NCBI RefSeq assembly: GCF_006345805.1
Contig: NW_021828829.1
Location: forward strand, 1-7,601
Reading direction: 5' to 3'
DNA length: 7,601 bases
Origin: Octopus sinensis
Lineage: Eukaryota
A model generated the notes under the pieces. The model had not been told where the DNA came from. It made no database searches and worked only from the letters and a program-made list of their open reading frames with translations. The position numbers and the translations under genes were made by a program. Numbering within the stretch: the first letter of the stretch is position 1; the number at the start of each line of letters is the position of its first letter. This document shows, in pieces, positions 1 to 7,601 of this stretch.

Positions 1-129
1 TTCTAGCACAGGCCATATATTATTCATATATAAGTACTTAAAAGGCGAAGTATGTACTAGAAACACAGAAGCTTGATAAATTTAGTGAAATGAAAATAAA
101 AAACTTTTACTAACTCAGTTCTTCTTAGA

Positions 130-131
<2 letters not shown>

Positions 132-186
<55 letters not shown>
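132..186. repeat. (TA)n microsatellite
   Basis: Direct reading; one interruption. Confidence 0.98.
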
Positions 187-204
187 CATTTTTCAAATCC
201 TGGC

Positions 205-285
205 ACGTGGCCAACGATTTTGGAGGCTGGTTGACAATATAGACCCCAGTACGTGAGTTGTATTTCATTTTATCAAGACTGAATC
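205..285. mobile_element. Possible decayed fragment of a second octopus SINE family
   Basis: GACCCCAGTACGTGAGTTGTATTTCATTTTATC resembles the remembered motif GACCCCAGT..ACTGGTACTTATTTTATCGACC of an abundant cephalopod SINE. There is no second copy in the window to confirm it. Confidence 0.35.
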
Positions 286-486
286 CAGGACTAAATTCGC
301 AGCGGAAAGTCTTCTCTCGTCCAACTGCTCTCGAACGTGTTGAGTATGATTTTACTCGAATATAATTCATTCAGCGTTGTTTCGTGTGACATACCTTAAT
401 TCTAATTTCACCAAGTTTTCCGCACACCGGCATACGTTTCCTACACAGTCTTAATAAGAATAATTTCATTATAACTGGGTTGTGGG

Positions 487-908
487 CAGCGCTTGATTAA
501 CCATTAAGCAAAATAAGTAGCTTGTGCCATCAACGGGAGGGGGCACCACGGAAATGGTAAGTGGTTTACGGTACAAAAGAAATCACTTTAAACTAGCTAA
601 AATGATACTAGGGATGCCCTATCTCAACTAAATATAGAAGCAGATGTATTACGTAAGATTAATCATGAGGATCTGATTAAAGAATTTGATATAAAAAAAG
701 TAGGAGGAAACTTTTCAAATATAAAGTGAAATTATGCAAAAGTAAAGATTATTTTCCATCTATCTGTTAGTTTTGTTTTATTTTTAAAAATAACAAATTT
801 ATTTAATGTTTTATTGTTGTTTATAATTTAAATTACATATATGTGGGGGTTGATAGCATCAAAAGCTTTTGAGTGCATAGGGTCACAATGGGTCTTCATT
901 CGACCCTG
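487..908 (+). mobile_element. Old non-autonomous hAT-superfamily DNA transposon (internal deletion derivative) with transposase C-terminal remnant
   Basis: Degenerate TIRs CAGCGCTTGATTAA (487-500) and TTCATTCGACCCTG (895-908), 8/14 complementary. 8-bp flanks GTTGTGGG / GCTGTTAG (5/8) fit a decayed hAT TSD. 610-699 translates RDALSQLNIEADVLRKINHEDLIKEFDIKK, then after a frameshift SRRKLFK, resembling the L..L.IE......I..F...K.RR end of hAT (Tip100/ZMYM-like) transposases. Confidence 0.7.
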
Positions 909-934
909 GCTGTTAGTGTCTGAGTTGGTTTTTC

Positions 935-973
935 ACTGCTGACGAAGTAAAACAACACAGAAACACGTGCGGT
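935..973 (+). ncRNA. Degenerate minimal type I hammerhead-like motif
   Basis: ACTG(935-938)-CTGACGA(939-945)-A-GT-AAAACAAC-AC-A-GAAAC(960-964)-ACGTG-CGGT(970-973). Stem I ACTG/CGGT includes one G-U pair; palindrome CACGTG. The NUH triplet is defective (GUG, or loss of TC from GTC). Confidence 0.45.
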
Positions 974-1092
974 CTACGATCCGATGACATCATTCGCAGC
1001 CCATTTTGTGTCTTTATTCGCGTCTGAGAAGAGAATTGTTTTGCCTGTGATTTCCTCCGCAGCGGTAATGCACGCAAACGTGTTGAATATGA

Positions 1093-1532
1093 CTACTCTC
1101 TTTACTCTTTTACTTGTTTCAGTCAATTGACAGTGGCCATACTGGAGCACCGCCTTTAGTCGAGCAAATCGACCCCAGGACTTATTCTTTGGAAGCCTAG
1201 TACTTATTCTATCGGTCTGTTTTGCCGGGGACGTAAACACACCAGTATCGGTTGTCAAGTGATGTTGGGGGTACAAACACAGACACACAAACATACACAC
1301 ATACACACACATACACACACACGCACACACACACACACACACACACCATATATATATATATATATATATACGACGGGATTCTTTCAGTTTCCGTCTACCA
1401 AATCCACTCACAAGTCTTTGGTCGACCCGAGGCTATCGTAGAAAACATTTGCTCAAGGTGCCATGCAGTGGGACTGAACCCGGAACCATGTAGTTTGCAA
1501 GCAAGCTACTTACCACACAGCCACTCCCCGCT
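1093..1532 (-). mobile_element. Near full-length tRNA-derived CORE-type SINE (octopus OR-like family) with internal (CA)n(TA)n tract
   Basis: Minus-strand head has A box TGGCTGTGTGG (1513-1523) and B-box-like GGTTCAGTCCC (1470-1480), then CORE-like CCTTGAGCAAATGTTTTCT. Central microsatellite ~1276-1370; 3' tail of short AAAAGAGT-like repeats (~1094-1115). Possible short TSD TATGA (1088-1092 / 1533-1537). Aligns with the copies at 5302-5457 and 6207-6517. Confidence 0.9.
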
Positions 1533-1824
1533 TATGAAATTACTTTAAACATTGTGCCAGCCGAGATCTAAGCAGCTTCATTATTTAAAGTTTCTACAAG
1601 CGCTGTTGTTTCTCTTTCTTCAAACTTACTTCTACTTACACTTGAGGCGGCATTCACCTGGGGGGGGGGGGTCGAATCCGCTCCGACAAAACGGGTTCAC
1701 CATATCGCTCACGGATTAAGCGTCATTCGCTTCTGTTTGCAACTGAAGTATACATTGTACCAAGAAATTTTTATAAGTTTCGAATCCAGTTTTAGATTCA
1801 CTTAAAAGGTGCTAATCCTCCACG

Positions 1825-1917
1825 CTTTACAGTAGAAGACACTTGTGAGAGATGACACTCGAATTCTATCCGAAATCGTGCGGTTGCCAAGTGTTGAAAC
1901 CAAACTGCTACACGGGC
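1825..1917 (-). mobile_element. Old, decayed head fragment of the same SINE family
   Basis: AGTAGAAGACACTTG (1831-1845) followed by CCGAAATCGTGCGGTTGCCAAG, which parallels CCGGAATCGTGTGGCTGGGAAG in the 5302-5457 copy at similar spacing. Confidence 0.55.
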
Positions 1918-2074
1918 AATGCGCAATGGTGTCTGAGAAGCCGTCCATAGGGCTGGGACCTCGATGGATGCAAAACTACTGGTCACTCTATGACCGGACA
2001 TATATCTAACTGCTTATAAATACATTACGGCTCTATGCTTTGCTTCTTTTTCGGATATACGATGCACTGACAAT

Positions 2075-2085
2075 ACACTCACACA

Positions 2086-2119
<34 letters not shown>
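2075..2119. repeat. (CA)n microsatellite
   Basis: Direct reading. Confidence 0.97.
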
Positions 2120-2290
2120 ATTATTACTAATCAGTAGATGTCACAGTGTGACTCAAGGCCTGACAGCTTCGTGCATTGACACTTATCAAACAGATAAGTT
2201 GAGTCACTCTGTAACTTCTGACGATTAATAATGAAAAAAAAACGTATATAAACTATTATAATCTAACTTCCTTGTTTTCTTCAACAAACC

Positions 2291-2334
<44 letters not shown>

Positions 2335-2343
2335 TATATATAT

Positions 2344-2390
<47 letters not shown>

Positions 2391-2430
2391 GTATGTATAT
2401 GTATATATATGTGTATATATGTATGTATGT
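2291..2430. repeat. Compound (TA)n/(TATG)n microsatellite
   Basis: Direct reading. Confidence 0.97.
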
Positions 2431-2697
2431 GCGTGTATAAACAACCGAATACGTTCTCTGTTGATATATCATATAGCTATGTGTAAGTGTATATACAAAG
2501 AGAGATAGGCGGTGACATAATCAAGTAGAGGCACAAATAAACACGCAAGAATGTAAGTAGGTGGACTTAGACAGAGAGATGTCAAAATAATATGTCGATA
2601 TATTTGTATAGATCAATAACAATATAAATACATACATACTTACGTGTGTGTGTGGTGAAGGGAAAACAAACGTAGTTACATAAGGGACTTCAATGCG

Positions 2698-2707
2698 TAT
2701 ATATATA

Positions 2708-2740
<33 letters not shown>

Positions 2741-2810
2741 ATATGTATGTAGTATGTATGTATGTATGTATGTATGTATGTATGTATGTATGTATGTATA
2801 TGTACATGTA
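2698..2810. repeat. Compound (TA)n + (TATG)n microsatellite
   Basis: Direct reading; a further (TA)n tract lies at 2910-2931. Confidence 0.97.
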
Positions 2811-3451
2811 AATAAAGGAGGGTGGGAAAAAGAAGCTTTGAAAGATAAAGTGACAGGGCAAATAGACAAGATGATATACAAACAATATGAAGCACAGAGA
2901 GAAAATAACATATATATATATATATATATATTATGTAGGATGTAAACGAGAGGGAAGTAGAGGTGCGGAGAGAGAGAATGTGATTGGTAGATGAGTAGGG
3001 GATGGCTGAGGTGAAGGGAAAAGGTTGAGAAGAAAGCTGAGTCGATATTTCTAGAAGGAAAGGCGAGATAGAAATGATATAATATGAAAAATCAAGATTG
3101 ATGAAAGAATGTTAGAATGAGAGGAATAATGGAATAATATCTTGGAGAAGGGAAGACTCAGGGACGAGTAAGTGTGAAAGTGTGATAGTGGCATGTGATA
3201 CATACATACATCCATACATACATACATATATGTATGCATAGCTGGGTGTGTATATGTGTTTTTATATATGTATACACAGGTAAGGATATATGTATGCACG
3301 TGCAGGAAAAACTTTATATACACATAAGCTTGAACGTATATAAGTGCATAATAGATTTATACATACATGGATATATATGATTATATTATGTACATAAGAA
3401 TGTATATATATATAATGTAAATAATAAATAATATAATATATATATATGCAT

Positions 3452-3748
3452 ATACACGCTACGCGCACCTTCGTTTTGGGATCATCACTACTTTCTTATC
3501 TCCCCTTCTTCCTAGCTCTTCTGTCTGACCACCTCTGTCCGGCATTCGACATGATAGATCACTAGCCACTATACCTTTTTCTATTTTCTCTCCCTGTTTA
3601 TTTCTGTGTTCCTTTCTGCTGAAGAGCGTAGGCTCGAAACGTAAAAGACTTTCTCACTTCCCGGGCGTTAAACTAATACATCTGTTTGTTGTTTATACAC
3701 CCGTCTTCATCTTTTGTTTTGTTTGTTTTTCTGTAAATACCATCTATA
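3452..3748 (+). mobile_element. Short pyrimidine-rich interspersed repeat carrying a hammerhead-like motif; probable Penelope-like terminal repeat remnant
   Basis: A ~300-bp complex-sequence island between TA-rich tracts, containing the 3612-3647 motif followed by a T-rich tail. Family identity is inferred from the known association of minimal hammerheads with Penelope-like elements. Boundaries are approximate. Confidence 0.5.
3612..3647 (+). ncRNA. Minimal type I hammerhead-like motif (variant core)
   Basis: Stem I CTTT(3612-3615)/AAAG(3644-3647); core CTGCTGA (3616-3622, A6C); extra A3623; stem II GAGC-GTAG-GCTC (3624-3635); GAAAC-GT-A with a loopless ACGT palindrome and GUA triplet (3641-3643). 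An overlapping canonical CTGAAGA box (3619-3625) gives an alternative register. Confidence 0.6.
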
Positions 3749-3766
3749 TATCTATATTTATATATA

Positions 3767-4313
3767 TACATTTAAACACATTAAAATGTTTCCATCATAG
3801 GAATCCCTTACGCTAGAAAGAACAGCTTTAAATGTACACTGTATTTTATATGAAAAATATATAGTCACTTGAGTAATTTTTCTATACGCTAGGCCACTGG
3901 TAGTAAAAATTTCTAAAATCTTTATTACTCTGATATTATTAATTATGTATAATGATTTCTGGAAGATTCGTTCGAAAAAATTGCCGGCAATCTTTAGCTG
4001 TCGACAAAAATAACTGCGCTTGCCCGGTGGATTTGAAAAAATTAAAATGTATAAGCAAGAGACACATGCTGGATTGGTCTCGTGTTTATATGTTAAATCT
4101 TGGCGTACCTGTTGAAGAAGACGTCGCCTAGCAAATTATTTTATTTGCTAAAATAAGTCAGAAACCATGGTCCAGGAAATAGATGATAAATGTTATTTTT
4201 CATTCCCTTCAAGAATTTATCCCTAATTAGTGGTTTTGGATTTTAGCTGTTCTTTCTAGCGTAAGAGATTCCTATGATGGAAACCTTTAATGTGTTTAAA
4301 TGTACACTGTATT
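3767..4313 (+). mobile_element. Penelope-like element pseudo-LTR / retrozyme-like non-autonomous unit with inverted 5' duplication
   Basis: ~60-bp inverted repeat 3767-3827 / 4245-4304 (about 3 differences). Exact 19-bp direct repeat TTTAAATGTACACTGTATT at 3827-3845 and 4295-4313 (period 468 bp). Internal hammerhead at 4108-4176. Both flanks are (TA)n. No ORF. Confidence 0.65.
4108..4176 (+). ncRNA. Type I hammerhead ribozyme-like motif (C3U core variant, palindromic stem III)
   Basis: Stem I CCTG(4108-4111)/CAGG(4173-4176); core TTGAAGA (4112-4118); A4119; stem II GAC/GTC (4120-4122/4157-4159) enclosing an 8-bp hairpin TAGCAAAT/ATTTGCTA; A4160; GAAAC (4161-4165); CATG; GTC triplet (4170-4172). 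Predicted cut after 4172. Confidence 0.75.
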
Positions 4314-4315
4314 AT

Positions 4316-4357
<42 letters not shown>

Positions 4358-4459
4358 TAGAATATATATATATATATAACTATATTATGTATGTTTGTAT
4401 GTATGTATGTATGTATGTGTATGTATGTATGTATGTATGTATGTATATATGTATGTATG
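4313..4459. repeat. Compound (TA)n + (TATG)n microsatellite
   Basis: Direct reading. Confidence 0.97.
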
Positions 4460-4591
4460 AAACAATGGTATTACATTTAAAGCGCTACACCTACATACTC
4501 CGAGTACTATAATGACAACTTTTTACTATTTATTCTAAATTAAAATATATATATGTATGTATGAATGTATGTATTCATACATACATATGTT

Positions 4592-5148
4592 TGTGTCAGA
4601 TCACTTTCGAGTGCTACTGGTAACATATAACCCAGTACAACCTGTTGCATGGTCGGTTCGTCGGCGACTAAACCGGCAACCCCACCAAGCTTGCTTGGTG
4701 AGGAGGGTGTTTATTGGACACCCTGCGGGATGAAAAATAAAACCCGTCAAAGGGCGGAGGAACTCTTGAGAGTCAACGGCCAACCAATAAATGTGTTAAG
4801 GCTGTATCATGCGCGGGGACATAGAAATAATCGGACTGAATACCCGATCGCGCGGTTAAACCATTGGGAGTGAAGGACTCCTAGCCTTTGTTAGGGCATC
4901 TTTCTAGGAGAAGGTAACTCAGGTAACTGGGATAACTCCGACATAAAACCTGCTGCTCAGTGGTTACCAATGATGTTGACTTGTTCTTCTTTTCGGATTA
5001 TGGCTACTGTTGCTTAGTGAGTGGGATTGACTCAGTGCATAGCCTTTCCCCACTTAAAAAAAATTTCTTGCACAGCCATTGCACGATAACAACATTGATT
5101 AATCTTCGTGCAATGTCCATACTCGATAAGGAGGGGGCAGCCACCACC
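4592..5148 (+). mobile_element. Probable 5' UTR and first codons of an RTE-type LINE (structured, higher-GC block)
   Basis: Chain of hairpins at 4602-4782. GGGCATCTTTCTAGGAGAAGGTAACTC...AAAACC (4894-4950) resembles a motif I recall from RTE 5' regions (GGCAACC..CTAGGAGAAGGAAAACTC..AAACC). Candidate ATG at 5113 ([12 protein letters not shown]) is cut off by a microsatellite. Same strand as the downstream RT. Confidence 0.5.
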
Positions 5149-5229
5149 ATGTATGTATATATGTATGTATATATATATGTATATATATGTATATATGTAT
5201 ATATGTATGTGTGTATATATGTATATATG

Positions 5230-5286
<57 letters not shown>

Positions 5287-5457
5287 GCATGCACTTATAT
5301 ATACGACGGGTTTCTTCCAGTTTCCATCTACTAAATCCACCCGTAATTTTTTGGGTGGTCCGAGGCTATAGAAGAAGCTTGCCCAAGGCGCCACACAGTG
5401 GGACTGAACCCGGAATCGTGTGGCTGGGAAGCAAGCGTATTACCACACAATCGCCTG
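5149..5457 (-). mobile_element. Same SINE family, 5' half only (tRNA head, CORE region, expanded microsatellite); 3' tail absent
   Basis: 5302-5457 matches 1369-1530 (TACGACGGG..CAGTTTCC..CGAGGCTAT..CAAGG..CAGTGGGACTGAACCCGGAA..TACCACACA). To the left of the (TA/TATG)n tract at 5149-5300 there is no SINE tail sequence. Confidence 0.85.
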
Positions 5458-5480
5458 TATATATATATAGAGAAAGAGAG

Positions 5481-5555
<75 letters not shown>

Positions 5556-5578
5556 CAGACAGATAGATAGATAGATAT
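5458..5578. repeat. (TA)n-(GA)n-(GATA)n compound microsatellite
   Basis: Direct reading; long GATA array with two GACA variants. Confidence 0.98.
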
Positions 5579-5802
5579 AGTAGCAGCGTTAGATGAAAGG
5601 TTAGTGAAACCCTTACGGTGTCCCCAATCTCCTCCACTATTATTATGCATCTTCACACCGGATGTTTTATGTTGACATAATACATCTTCAGGTCATTTTC
5701 CCTATTCTTGCATTAATTATCTCTTTTTCTTTCCTTTCTTTTCTTTTTGTCTTTTGTTTGATTCACTATTTCTCACCATTCATACCCATATATAAATCAC
5801 TA

Positions 5803-5804
<2 letters not shown>

Positions 5805-5837
<33 letters not shown>
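5805..5837. repeat. (TTA)n trinucleotide microsatellite
   Basis: Direct reading; produces the poly-Tyr in ORF 5662-6294. Confidence 0.97.
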
Positions 5838-5838
<1 letters not shown>

Positions 5839-6107
5839 TCTTATTACGAGGATGATAGTCACAGGATTATATCTTGTCAACTTCCGGTGGAGACAATTAG
5901 AACCTTTCTTAAAACAATAGACTTTAACCTGAATACACAAACCCAAATCCTGAATTATTTAACAGATATTATTCACAGCTCATTTTGGTGTAAGAGGGCT
6001 TATGTACACTCCCCACCCCGACAACACACATTCACGTGTTGTCCTATATGCGTATGTGTTAGCAACTTTATCTATGCATCTACAGTGGTTTGGCTAAGAC
6101 GTTACAG

Positions 6108-6150
6108 CACTGGTTCTGAAACCCGGAGCCGTGCGGCCCTCGGGTGTCCG
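6108..6150 (+). mobile_element. Possible decayed terminal sequence of a Charlie-type hAT DNA transposon
   Basis: CACTGGTTCTGAAACCCGGAGCCGTGCGGCCCTCGGGTGTCCG resembles the CAGTGGTTCTCAAAC..GGGGTCCGCGGACCCC..GGGGTCCG termini of Charlie-like elements. No partner end is seen. Confidence 0.3.
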
Positions 6151-6206
6151 TATAAGAATTTGTTGTTAAAATTTGTGCGCATTGAATCGGTTGTACTTGT
6201 ACAATT

Positions 6207-6409
6207 CCTTTACTCGTTTCAGTCATTTGACTGTGGCCATGCTGGAGCACCGCCTTTAGTTGAACGAATCGACCTCAGGACTTGTTCTTTGTAAGCCTAG
6301 TACTTATTCTGTCGGTCTGTTTTGCCAAAACTGCTCAGATACAGGGACGTAAGCACAGCAACATCGGTTGTCAAGCTATGATGGGGGGGGGGCAAATACA
6401 GACACACAA

Positions 6410-6443
<34 letters not shown>

Positions 6444-6517
6444 GACAGGCTTCTTTCAGTTTCCGTCTACTAAATCCACTCACAAGTTTTTAGTCTGTCC
6501 GAGGCTATAGTAGAAGA
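6207..6517 (-). mobile_element. Same SINE family, 3' part only; tRNA head lost at a junction with the LINE RT
   Basis: Matches 1107-1443 (GTTTCAGTCA..TGGCCAT..CTGGAGCACCGCCTTTAGT..AAGCCTAGTACTTATTCT..TCGGTTGTCAAG..AAATCCACTCACAAG..CGAGGCTATAGTAGAAGA), then switches abruptly to LINE coding sequence. Carries ~16 bp (6328-6343) that is missing from the first copy. Confidence 0.9.
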
Positions 6518-7601
6518 ACTAACAGCAGCCACCAAGCAACTAAAAGCCTCGAAAGCATTTGGTCCCGACAACATCCCGGCTATAATTTGGAAGGATGAGA
6601 TTTCACCCACTTTTGCTCAACTCTGCAACCACACACTTTCCACCTTGTCGCTCCAAAGATTTGGCACCAATCTCAAATGATTCCAATACCCAAAAAAGGC
6701 GATTTATCCCTCGTCACCAACTACAGGGGTATATCTCTAATGTCAATTGCTGCAAAACTGTACAACAAACTGATCCTAAATCGTCTTGTCCTTTTTGTTG
6801 AACCTTTGCTCCGAAAGAACCAAAATGGATTCAGACATGGGCGCTCAACGCTGAGCCAGATACTATGCCTGCGCAGACTTATTGAAGAATCAAAAGCATT
6901 TAATCACGATCTTGCAATGGTATTTGTAGACTTTTCTAAAGCGTTCGACTCTGTAGATAGGTACAAGTTGTTTGAAATCCTTAAGCTCTATGGGATACCA
7001 GACAAAATCATTTCTGCCATCAAGGTCCTCTACACAGATACGTCTTCAACCATCTTAACTCCTGACGGAGAAACATCATATTTCTCAATCAAAGCCGGAA
7101 TACTGCAGGGAGACACACTCGCCCCATTTCTTTTCATCATTGTTGTTGATTATGTGCTACGTATGTCAGTTGATACCATCTCTGGCAAGGGCTTTGAAAT
7201 AAAACCAAGAAGAAGTTCCAGACACCCAGCTGAGTACTTGACAGACACTGACTTTGCTGACGACATCGCTCTTATCAGTGATTCTCTCTCCAATGCCCAG
7301 TCTCTTTTACAATCTCTTGAACAAGCCTCAAATTGTTAGGTCTTTACCTCAATGAGGCCAAACTGAATACATAAACAAGTGCTGTCCAACAGTGATTGCA
7401 TCATCCATACTCTCAACAATGCACCTTAAATATGGTTTCTGATTATAAATATCTTGGGTCATACATATCATCATCTGGAAAAGACTTTCTAACTAGAAAG
7501 GGTATGGCCTGGTCAGCCTGTAATGACATGCATAAGATCTGGTCATCAAATCTAAGTAGAGACTTCAAACTTAAGATCTTCAAAGCCACAGTCGAACCAA
7601 T
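6513..7601 (+). pseudogene. Non-LTR retrotransposon (LINE, RTE clade) reverse transcriptase region; 5'-truncated, frameshifted, continues past the window end
   Basis: ORF 6677-7339 has the RT motifs IPIPKKGD, NYRGISL, QNGFRHGRST, FVDFSKAFDSV, GILQGDTLAPFLF and DFADD. Upstream in another frame (6513-6597): EELTAATKQLKASKAFGPDNIPAIIWKD (pre-RT GPD motif). Downstream in shifted frames: GLYLNEAK, TEYINK and (7432-7599) MVSDYKYLGSYISSSGKDFLTRKGMAWSACNDMHKIWSSNLSRDFKLKIFKATVEP. RTE assignment is from motif style, not a search. Confidence 0.95.

Follow-up and report, generated by a model that had tools for sequence, protein, structure and literature searches.

A variant type I hammerhead ribozyme motif in a non-coding, probably Penelope-like repeat family of Octopus sinensis

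The window analyzed here is a 7,601-nt stretch of Octopus sinensis DNA (contig NW_021828829.1, positions 1 to 7,601), and it contains one copy of a dispersed 468-bp repeat that carries a type I hammerhead ribozyme motif. Reading through it, the copy is made up of an inverted arm, 18 nt of a prior unit, a single complete unit and then a TA tract, with the following features:

3767-3827, minus strand: inverted, 5'-truncated arm of the element, matching 4245-4304 at 95%
3827-3844, plus strand: partial tandem, made of the preceding unit's final 18 nt; same sequence as 4295-4312
3845-4312, plus strand: 468-bp repeat unit, a non-coding Penelope-like element; 32% G+C, longest ATG ORF 59 aa
4108-4176, plus strand: type I hammerhead ribozyme motif, cleavage predicted after C4172, from the scan and family covariation
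4108-4111, plus strand: 5' strand of stem I, pairing with 4173-4176; pairs retained in 60-67 of 69 parsed copies, a count from a parse that favors intact stem I
4112-4118, plus strand: core TTGAAGA (U3 U4 G5 A6 A7 G8 A9), with U3.G8 replacing C3-G8
4119-4160, plus strand: two-part stem II, from pairing counts and double changes at all five proximal pairs
4161-4172, plus strand: GAAA box (4161-4164), stem III palindrome (4164-4171) and C17 (4172), from palindromes across subfamilies
4313-4458, no strand assigned: (TA)n/(TATG)n tract at the short 3' end of the element

A short TA tract also lies to the left of the inverted arm. Because it consists of one full unit plus partial arms, the copy, which is an old insertion, has a single ribozyme. 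The host element is the motif's main context, and an earlier preliminary description of this DNA had passed over it. The element lies in the TA tract at the end of a very common repeat (3451-3760, plus strand), which has a minimal hammerhead motif of its own at 3612-3647 with a CUGUNGA core, in which U stands for A6 and N7 is free in most of about 20 copies. Also found in the window were a degenerate copy belonging to a second and older hammerhead family (935-978, plus strand), with a short stem II, a 10-nt palindrome and stem I lost, whose relatives have A.A at the stem II base in 7 of 12 cases and the 3'-side A in most (by eye); an abundant SINE-like repeat, present as three copies or fragments (1094-1527, 5290-5450 and 6200-6517); and a broken non-LTR retrotransposon reverse transcriptase (RT) fragment (6520-7601, plus strand; RVT_1 E 1e-28 at 6599-7336), which is unrelated to the hammerhead.

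A strict hammerhead scan of both strands of the window returned one match, at 4108-4176, and dinucleotide shuffles gave 0/200. The preliminary description had proposed a complete type I topology here, and every piece of it was recovered where it had been placed. Three stems surround the core with both ends in stem I, and U4 G5 A6 N7 G8 A9, G12 A13 A14, A15.1-U16.1 and H17 are all present. The oddities reported earlier were likewise seen: U3.G8 instead of a Watson-Crick C3-G8, A.A instead of a pair at 10.1-11.1, and an extended stem II. In stem II, A4119 faces A4160, GAC 4120-4122 pairs with GTC 4157-4159, and an internal loop and a distal hairpin of 8 bp (4129-4136 with 4143-4150) complete the layout. 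The stem III palindrome of this copy is ACCATGGT, 8 nt at 4164-4171. One change mostly absent from the family, G4123 (T in nearly all contigs compared), cuts the proximal part of stem II to 3 bp, compared with 5 bp in the family. The A.A at 10.1-11.1 and the unpaired base after A9 of Cervera, plus an added A before GAAA, are one layout under two numberings; assigning 10.1-11.1 to the G-C pair instead leaves the variant with one extra base per side.

Rfam gave no hammerhead match at E <=10 for the whole window or for 4060-4220, so standard models miss the motif, as had been anticipated for strict descriptors; the Rfam matches in the window were limited to microsatellite-driven miRNA matches below the cut-off. 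The lowest-energy fold of the monomer is not the hammerhead, which lies 5 kcal/mol above the minimum, and the folding z-score is -0.86.

A search of the animal's own genome (2.72 Gb) yielded 3,648 candidates, of which 40 were scored, with 81-91% identity over the unit, and a 20-mer at the unit end occurred exactly 1,563 times (control 0). About 230 loci were sampled, out of at least 1,563 places. Copies are 5'-truncated and frequently have an upstream partial copy, direct or inverted. In loci chosen by words outside the ribozyme, 216 unit ends were scored: 114 stopped within about 20 nt of the unit end, 76 at 3925-3955, 13 ran into a full next unit and 13 lay elsewhere, and the two 3' end sites are about 100 nt apart. 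A simple repeat follows 165 of 203 family ends, versus 15% of random places. True dimers are present (loci L002, L053 and L291), and no long arrays of the unit were seen among the sampled loci. Wherever a copy reaches far enough, the sequence upstream of the unit start is the end of another unit and not coding sequence.

Penelope-like elements are described as leaving partial tandems and inverted 5' arms, with a tail that is optional, and as targeting microsatellites (PMC8557442, PMC11167929). The family shows the partial tandem or inverted 5'-truncated arrangement with an optional 3' tail, and this insertion structure, with its two 3' ends and simple-repeat flanks, bears out the Penelope-like link first suggested for the motif. 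The longest ORF of the unit is 59 aa, and because the unit has no RT and GIY-YIG ORF of its own, we file the element as non-autonomous only. A MITE reading of the inverted repeat was ruled out, the arms being truncated 3'-end copies of varying length. Head-to-head inversions recur near the window equivalent of 4177-4192, one arm starting from about 4177 and the other from about 4190, which suggests a new DNA strand folding back just past the ribozyme. Distant relatives of the unit occur at L182:2830-3430 and L193:305-439, the former being alike in unit size and tail and carrying a hammerhead with C3-G8 and G.U; given this resemblance, the mini-elements form a wider group.

Conceivably, too, the unit could be no more than the repeat at the end of a longer Penelope-like element that codes for protein, with the ORF lying beyond the sampled loci, as the motifs of other animals are mostly end pieces of truncated elements (PMC4209133) and our sample takes in only part of the genomic places. 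We consider this quite improbable, since in the copies that reach it the unit start is preceded by another unit's end rather than by coding sequence, and no tested GIY-YIG locus had the unit as its own end. Intact RT and GIY-YIG ORFs of 775-781 aa with a Neptune-type cysteine linker (CX4-5CxxC) are present in the genome, and the 3' hammerheads of these coding elements carry U.U, or U3-A8 with G-C or A.C. Neither 8 downstream regions nor the coding elements at 50 GIY-YIG loci, drawn from 5,029 candidates, showed similarity to the unit apart from two separate relatives that are non-coding, and none of these coding elements had end sequence in common with it. At L176, L178 and L179 such ORFs come after a first ORF of 280-479 aa that is read in a different frame, and their 3' region has CCAAT and TGACGT repeats. 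Hammerheads upstream of the L178 ORF, and the related unit at L182, are separated from the coding elements by microsatellites and were set aside as separate insertions.

Conservation was calculated from 68 segments picked by words outside the ribozyme, without a ribozyme filter. The ten invariant core positions were 0.95 conserved in these segments, versus 0.82 in 108 other columns, with 0 of 20,000 random draws as high, and N7 stood at 0.40, free among fixed neighbors. We took the core figure from this unfiltered set because the ribozyme parse (at most 3 substitutions in core plus stem I; 140 copies kept, 69 from unbiased loci) dropped decayed copies. A core shifted to start at C4109 (CUGUUGA) was ruled out because the free position maps to 4116. 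The 3-8 states in the 69 parsed copies were C-G 39, U.G 20, U-A 8, C.A 1 and G.G 1, so that the contact is retained as a pair or wobble in 67/69. A8 occurred with U3 in 8/28 copies and with C3 in 1/40 (Fisher p 0.003, for rows that are not independent), and part of the A8 may come from CpG decay.

The base of stem II in the same 69 copies was A.A in 33, A-U in 13, G.U in 7, C.A in 6, and U.U, G-C, A.C and A.G in 2 each. This first position was paired in 23/69 copies, and the next five in 59, 62, 59, 55 and 52. With A on the 3' side, the 5' side carries A, C or U but in no case G, which matches the published consensus (Cervera 2014, PMC4209133); with U or C on the 3' side, G does occur and forms a pair. 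Exact word counts over the genome were 230 for U3 and 149 for C3, and 247 for the A-form and 55 for the U-form of the 3' core.

Covariation was scored on 40 rows hand-picked for subfamilies (39 of the 69 plus the window copy), some off register by one column; both sides changed in 14 of 21 pairs, with 67 cells against 21 in shuffled data and 0/500 shuffles as high, where the relatedness of family copies means that counts are not independent events. Slid-structure controls were 24-46% paired, versus 87% for the true structure (40 rows). Stem III is a palindrome of 8, 10 or 12 nt or a 9-nt near-palindrome, depending on subfamily, and stem I is longer in some subfamilies. The expectation raised earlier that stems I and II would covary and the core be preferentially conserved among genomic copies was thus borne out; stem covariation and palindromes of several lengths support the hammerhead identity and the proposed dimer logic. 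The strongest sign that two ribozymes pair with each other is a palindrome that persists through changes of length. The missing Rfam match and unremarkable folding z-score would suit a chance resemblance within AT-rich repeat DNA, a reading whose probability we regard as negligible: the shuffles, the free N7 between fixed neighbors and the palindrome series all speak against it, as do 93 hammerhead matches versus 2 in reversed sequence when about 1 Mb of fetched loci was scanned with relaxed settings, and the covariation data exclude it.

A tree of the 69 rows made without the ribozyme columns sorts ribozyme states by clade. One clade, with GAT/ATC and a 10-nt palindrome, contains C3-G8, U3.G8 and U3-A8 copies; another has C3-G8, A-U and a 9-nt stem III; a third has C3-G8, G.U or G-C and AGC/GCT, and the 12-nt palindrome arises within it. 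The window copy falls in a clade of 21 rows that are mostly U3.G8 and A.A, on an end branch of 0.03, with G4123 as an extra change. Because the states sort by clade, U3.G8 and A.A go back to a founder whose descendants multiplied; the oddities are family-level traits and not private to the window copy.

From the 3' side, 155 inserts reach the ribozyme. Of these, 134 extend past the cut site and 21 terminate in 4173-4183, with 0 of the 21 on 4173 itself. The 5' end rate at 4173-4183 was 0.135, compared with 0.013-0.095 in 13 upstream 10-nt bins holding 1-12 ends each. Many of the 4173-4183 ends are fold-back junctions, so this excess merely hints at cutting or at stem I pausing. No sharp pile of 5' ends at 4173 was found in genomic copies, 2 of 51 breaking within 1-2 nt by eye. 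Loci selected with the 3' core word showed a 5'-end cluster at 4131-4137; it was unclear in the unbiased set (7/109 in the bin) and was dropped. Contigs of three presumed RNA runs and one unlabelled run cover the family at 85% likeness; they carry no end or strand information and were counted neither for nor against cleavage.

These ends bear on the possibility that the U3.G8 and A.A lineage is a dead ribozyme, whose ancestor cleaved and whose core has decayed during spread by copying that needs no cleavage. We hold this possible, at less than even odds. It would account for the many inserts that cross the cut site, and for A.A and C.A lacking covariation, with 27/40 unpaired; in vitro, ribozyme mutants leave insertion unblocked (PMC11167929), and core mutants are generally weak (PMC9901934). 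Decay fits less well with the recurrence of a stem II base mismatch in at least 3 clades of the family, in 11 of 42 hammerhead rows from other families in the relaxed scan (A.C, U.U or C.A) and, as A.A, among relatives of the window's second family; moreover, in mismatch lineages the stems are still compensated and the palindrome has grown longer, and C3-G8 and U3-A8 states stand next to U3.G8 on the tree.

Another reading is a strict non-LTR retrozyme, in which tandem transcripts would be cut to 468-nt monomers and circularized, and the circle copied round more than once. This overlaps with the explanation preferred below, the sole difference being the circular step. Full and partial units and true dimers exist, the unit has low G+C and no ORF, 5' ends at 4173-4183 (21/155) are about two to three times denser than in most upstream bins, and a 2026 preprint derives retrozymes from Penelope-like elements (bioRxiv 10.64898/2026.07.22.740005). 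We judge it somewhat unlikely, since the unit exceeds the published 150-450 bp (PMC7229834), only 13/216 unit ends continue into a full next unit and long arrays were not seen, while the excess of 5' ends is also explicable by fold-back at a short self-complementary spot or by stem I pausing.

The explanation we prefer, at a probability of roughly 0.78, is a type I hammerhead in a 468-bp non-coding repeat, likely spread as a non-autonomous Penelope-like element, whose RNA would cut slowly after C4172, likely as a palindrome-joined double hammerhead. As its relatives preserve the shape by compensating changes, the motif likely descends from a slow ribozyme that would cut in pairs, of the kind known from Penelope-like elements. 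It is probably a genuine variant, shared by the family, of the dimer hammerhead of Penelope elements and retrozymes, and its non-autonomous host had carried no label before. The family has tandem and inverted 5'-truncated arms, two 3' ends and simple-repeat flanks. In the proposed scheme, a helper RT with a GIY-YIG endonuclease, probably of Neptune type, would nick AT-rich repeats and initiate reverse transcription from one of two positions within the RNA, some 140 or 240 nt 3' of the cut site. Founder lineages held the core, stems and palindrome while the 3-8 pair and stem II base drifted. Cleavage may be weak and probably protein-helped, and most templates would have escaped cutting or been religated at the site. 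The anole system is similar: its ribozyme cleaved only with protein and was dispensable for insertion, and two such 3' ends are tied there to two internal start sites (PMC11167929).

Self-cleavage of the window copy is doubtful, given U3.G8, A.A, a further stem II mismatch, a single ribozyme at the locus and the missing pile at 4173. With one ribozyme at the locus, it could cut only with a second transcript. For the window copy, the double hammerhead was calculated at -40.6 kcal/mol, which is lower than a pair of monomers in their minimum folds (-33.6) and higher than the best fold of a dimer (-45.5); lying 4.9 kcal/mol above the latter, it appears feasible but not dominant. We put the odds that this copy would cleave measurably as a dimer slightly short of even. 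Penelope minimal hammerheads cleave poorly even as dimers (PMC4209133), one of nine Xenopus retrozyme dimers cleaved in vitro (bioRxiv 10.64898/2026.07.22.740005), and in a type III hammerhead core changes other than a C-G swap led to low activity (PMC9901934).

Closest among published systems are the minimal type I hammerheads found in metazoan Penelope-like elements (Cervera and De la Pena 2014, PMC4209133), which share the type I layout, short stem I and long stem II (helix II of 7-8 bp), a palindromic helix III predicted to force dimers, an extra A, C or U after A9, U3-A8 and U3.G8 variants, and dispersed families of truncated copies with inverted pairs. Their Fig. S3 contains a U3.G8 motif (Saccoglossus kowalevskii 1), and a single row has the box AGAAA, a row not identifiable from the text. 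Their consensus has a one-sided bulge, whereas in the 468-bp family GAAA is separated from the G-C pair by an added base, in most cases A or U, so that A.A or C.A results; the family differs also in its two-part stem II of about 40 nt, 8-12 nt palindrome and lack of an attached ORF. Axolotl HHR_Amex2 has a stem II base mismatch too, U.U as opposed to A.A plus a U3 core in the window family, and is active, weakly alone and better as a dimer (PMC7229834). Both U3-A8 and U.U were reported by Perreault 2011 (PMC3088659), with filters that discard core changes and core-adjacent mismatches. The unusualness claimed for the motif in the preliminary description thus holds in part: A.A was not found in print, but a long stem II and U3.G8 appear in Cervera 2014 and a U.U mismatch is active in axolotl. 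No report of the A.A form or of the 468-bp family was found in the literature searched, a comparison that also took in parts of PMC6765202, PMC7151607 and PMC2837043, with Lunse 2017, the likeliest place, and Przybilski 2007 outside it.

Non-LTR retrozymes (PMC7229834; bioRxiv 10.64898/2026.07.22.740005) resemble the family as non-coding low-G+C units with one type I hammerhead; they measure 150-450 bp, compared with 468 bp here, and form arrays, whereas this family, known from sequence alone, is mostly dispersed and truncated, with Penelope-type tails and inversions. Poseidon PAc of the green anole (PMC11167929) has the same two 3' ends downstream of the ribozyme, AT-rich targets and intact inserts that cross the ribozyme, but is protein-coding with a short optional tail, while the 468-bp element encodes no protein and its ends are about 100 nt apart. 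Neptune-clade and non-autonomous MRC1-like elements (PMC8557442) share the microsatellite-biased insertion, partial tandems and inverted 5' arms; Neptune-type ORFs occur in the same genome, and no sequence link between them and the unit was found.

The family is not a new ribozyme class. Motifs of this kind go undetected in large numbers by Rfam and strict filters. Hammerheads of Penelope-like elements are kept everywhere, are poor cutters, and in one in vitro system were dispensable for insertion. The family offers matched natural versions in one scaffold, with 3-8 as C-G, U.G or U-A, the stem II base as G-C, G.U, A-U, A.A or C.A, and palindromes of 8-12 nt, and because each version made genomic copies, how cutting rate relates to spread can be asked directly. 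A broader reading, which we consider unlikely, is an overlooked hammerhead class in this genome, with an open 1x1 stem II base (A.A, C.A, A.C or U.U) and a 3-8 contact walking from C-G through U.G to U-A. It would be purposely slow: cleavage would require both protein help and a dimer of separate transcripts, leaving the bulk of the RNA whole or circular for reverse transcription. If true, the family would be a natural allelic series for the limits to which a hammerhead core can be loosened, and descriptor-based counts of animal ribozymes would fall well short.

Repeats of TGATGACGTC behind an L179-type ORF have no stem I and were left out of the hammerhead count. Many unrelated type I families with 4-12 nt stem III palindromes were also observed, among other loci at L014, L044, L046, L102, L122, L187, L222, L239 and L297.
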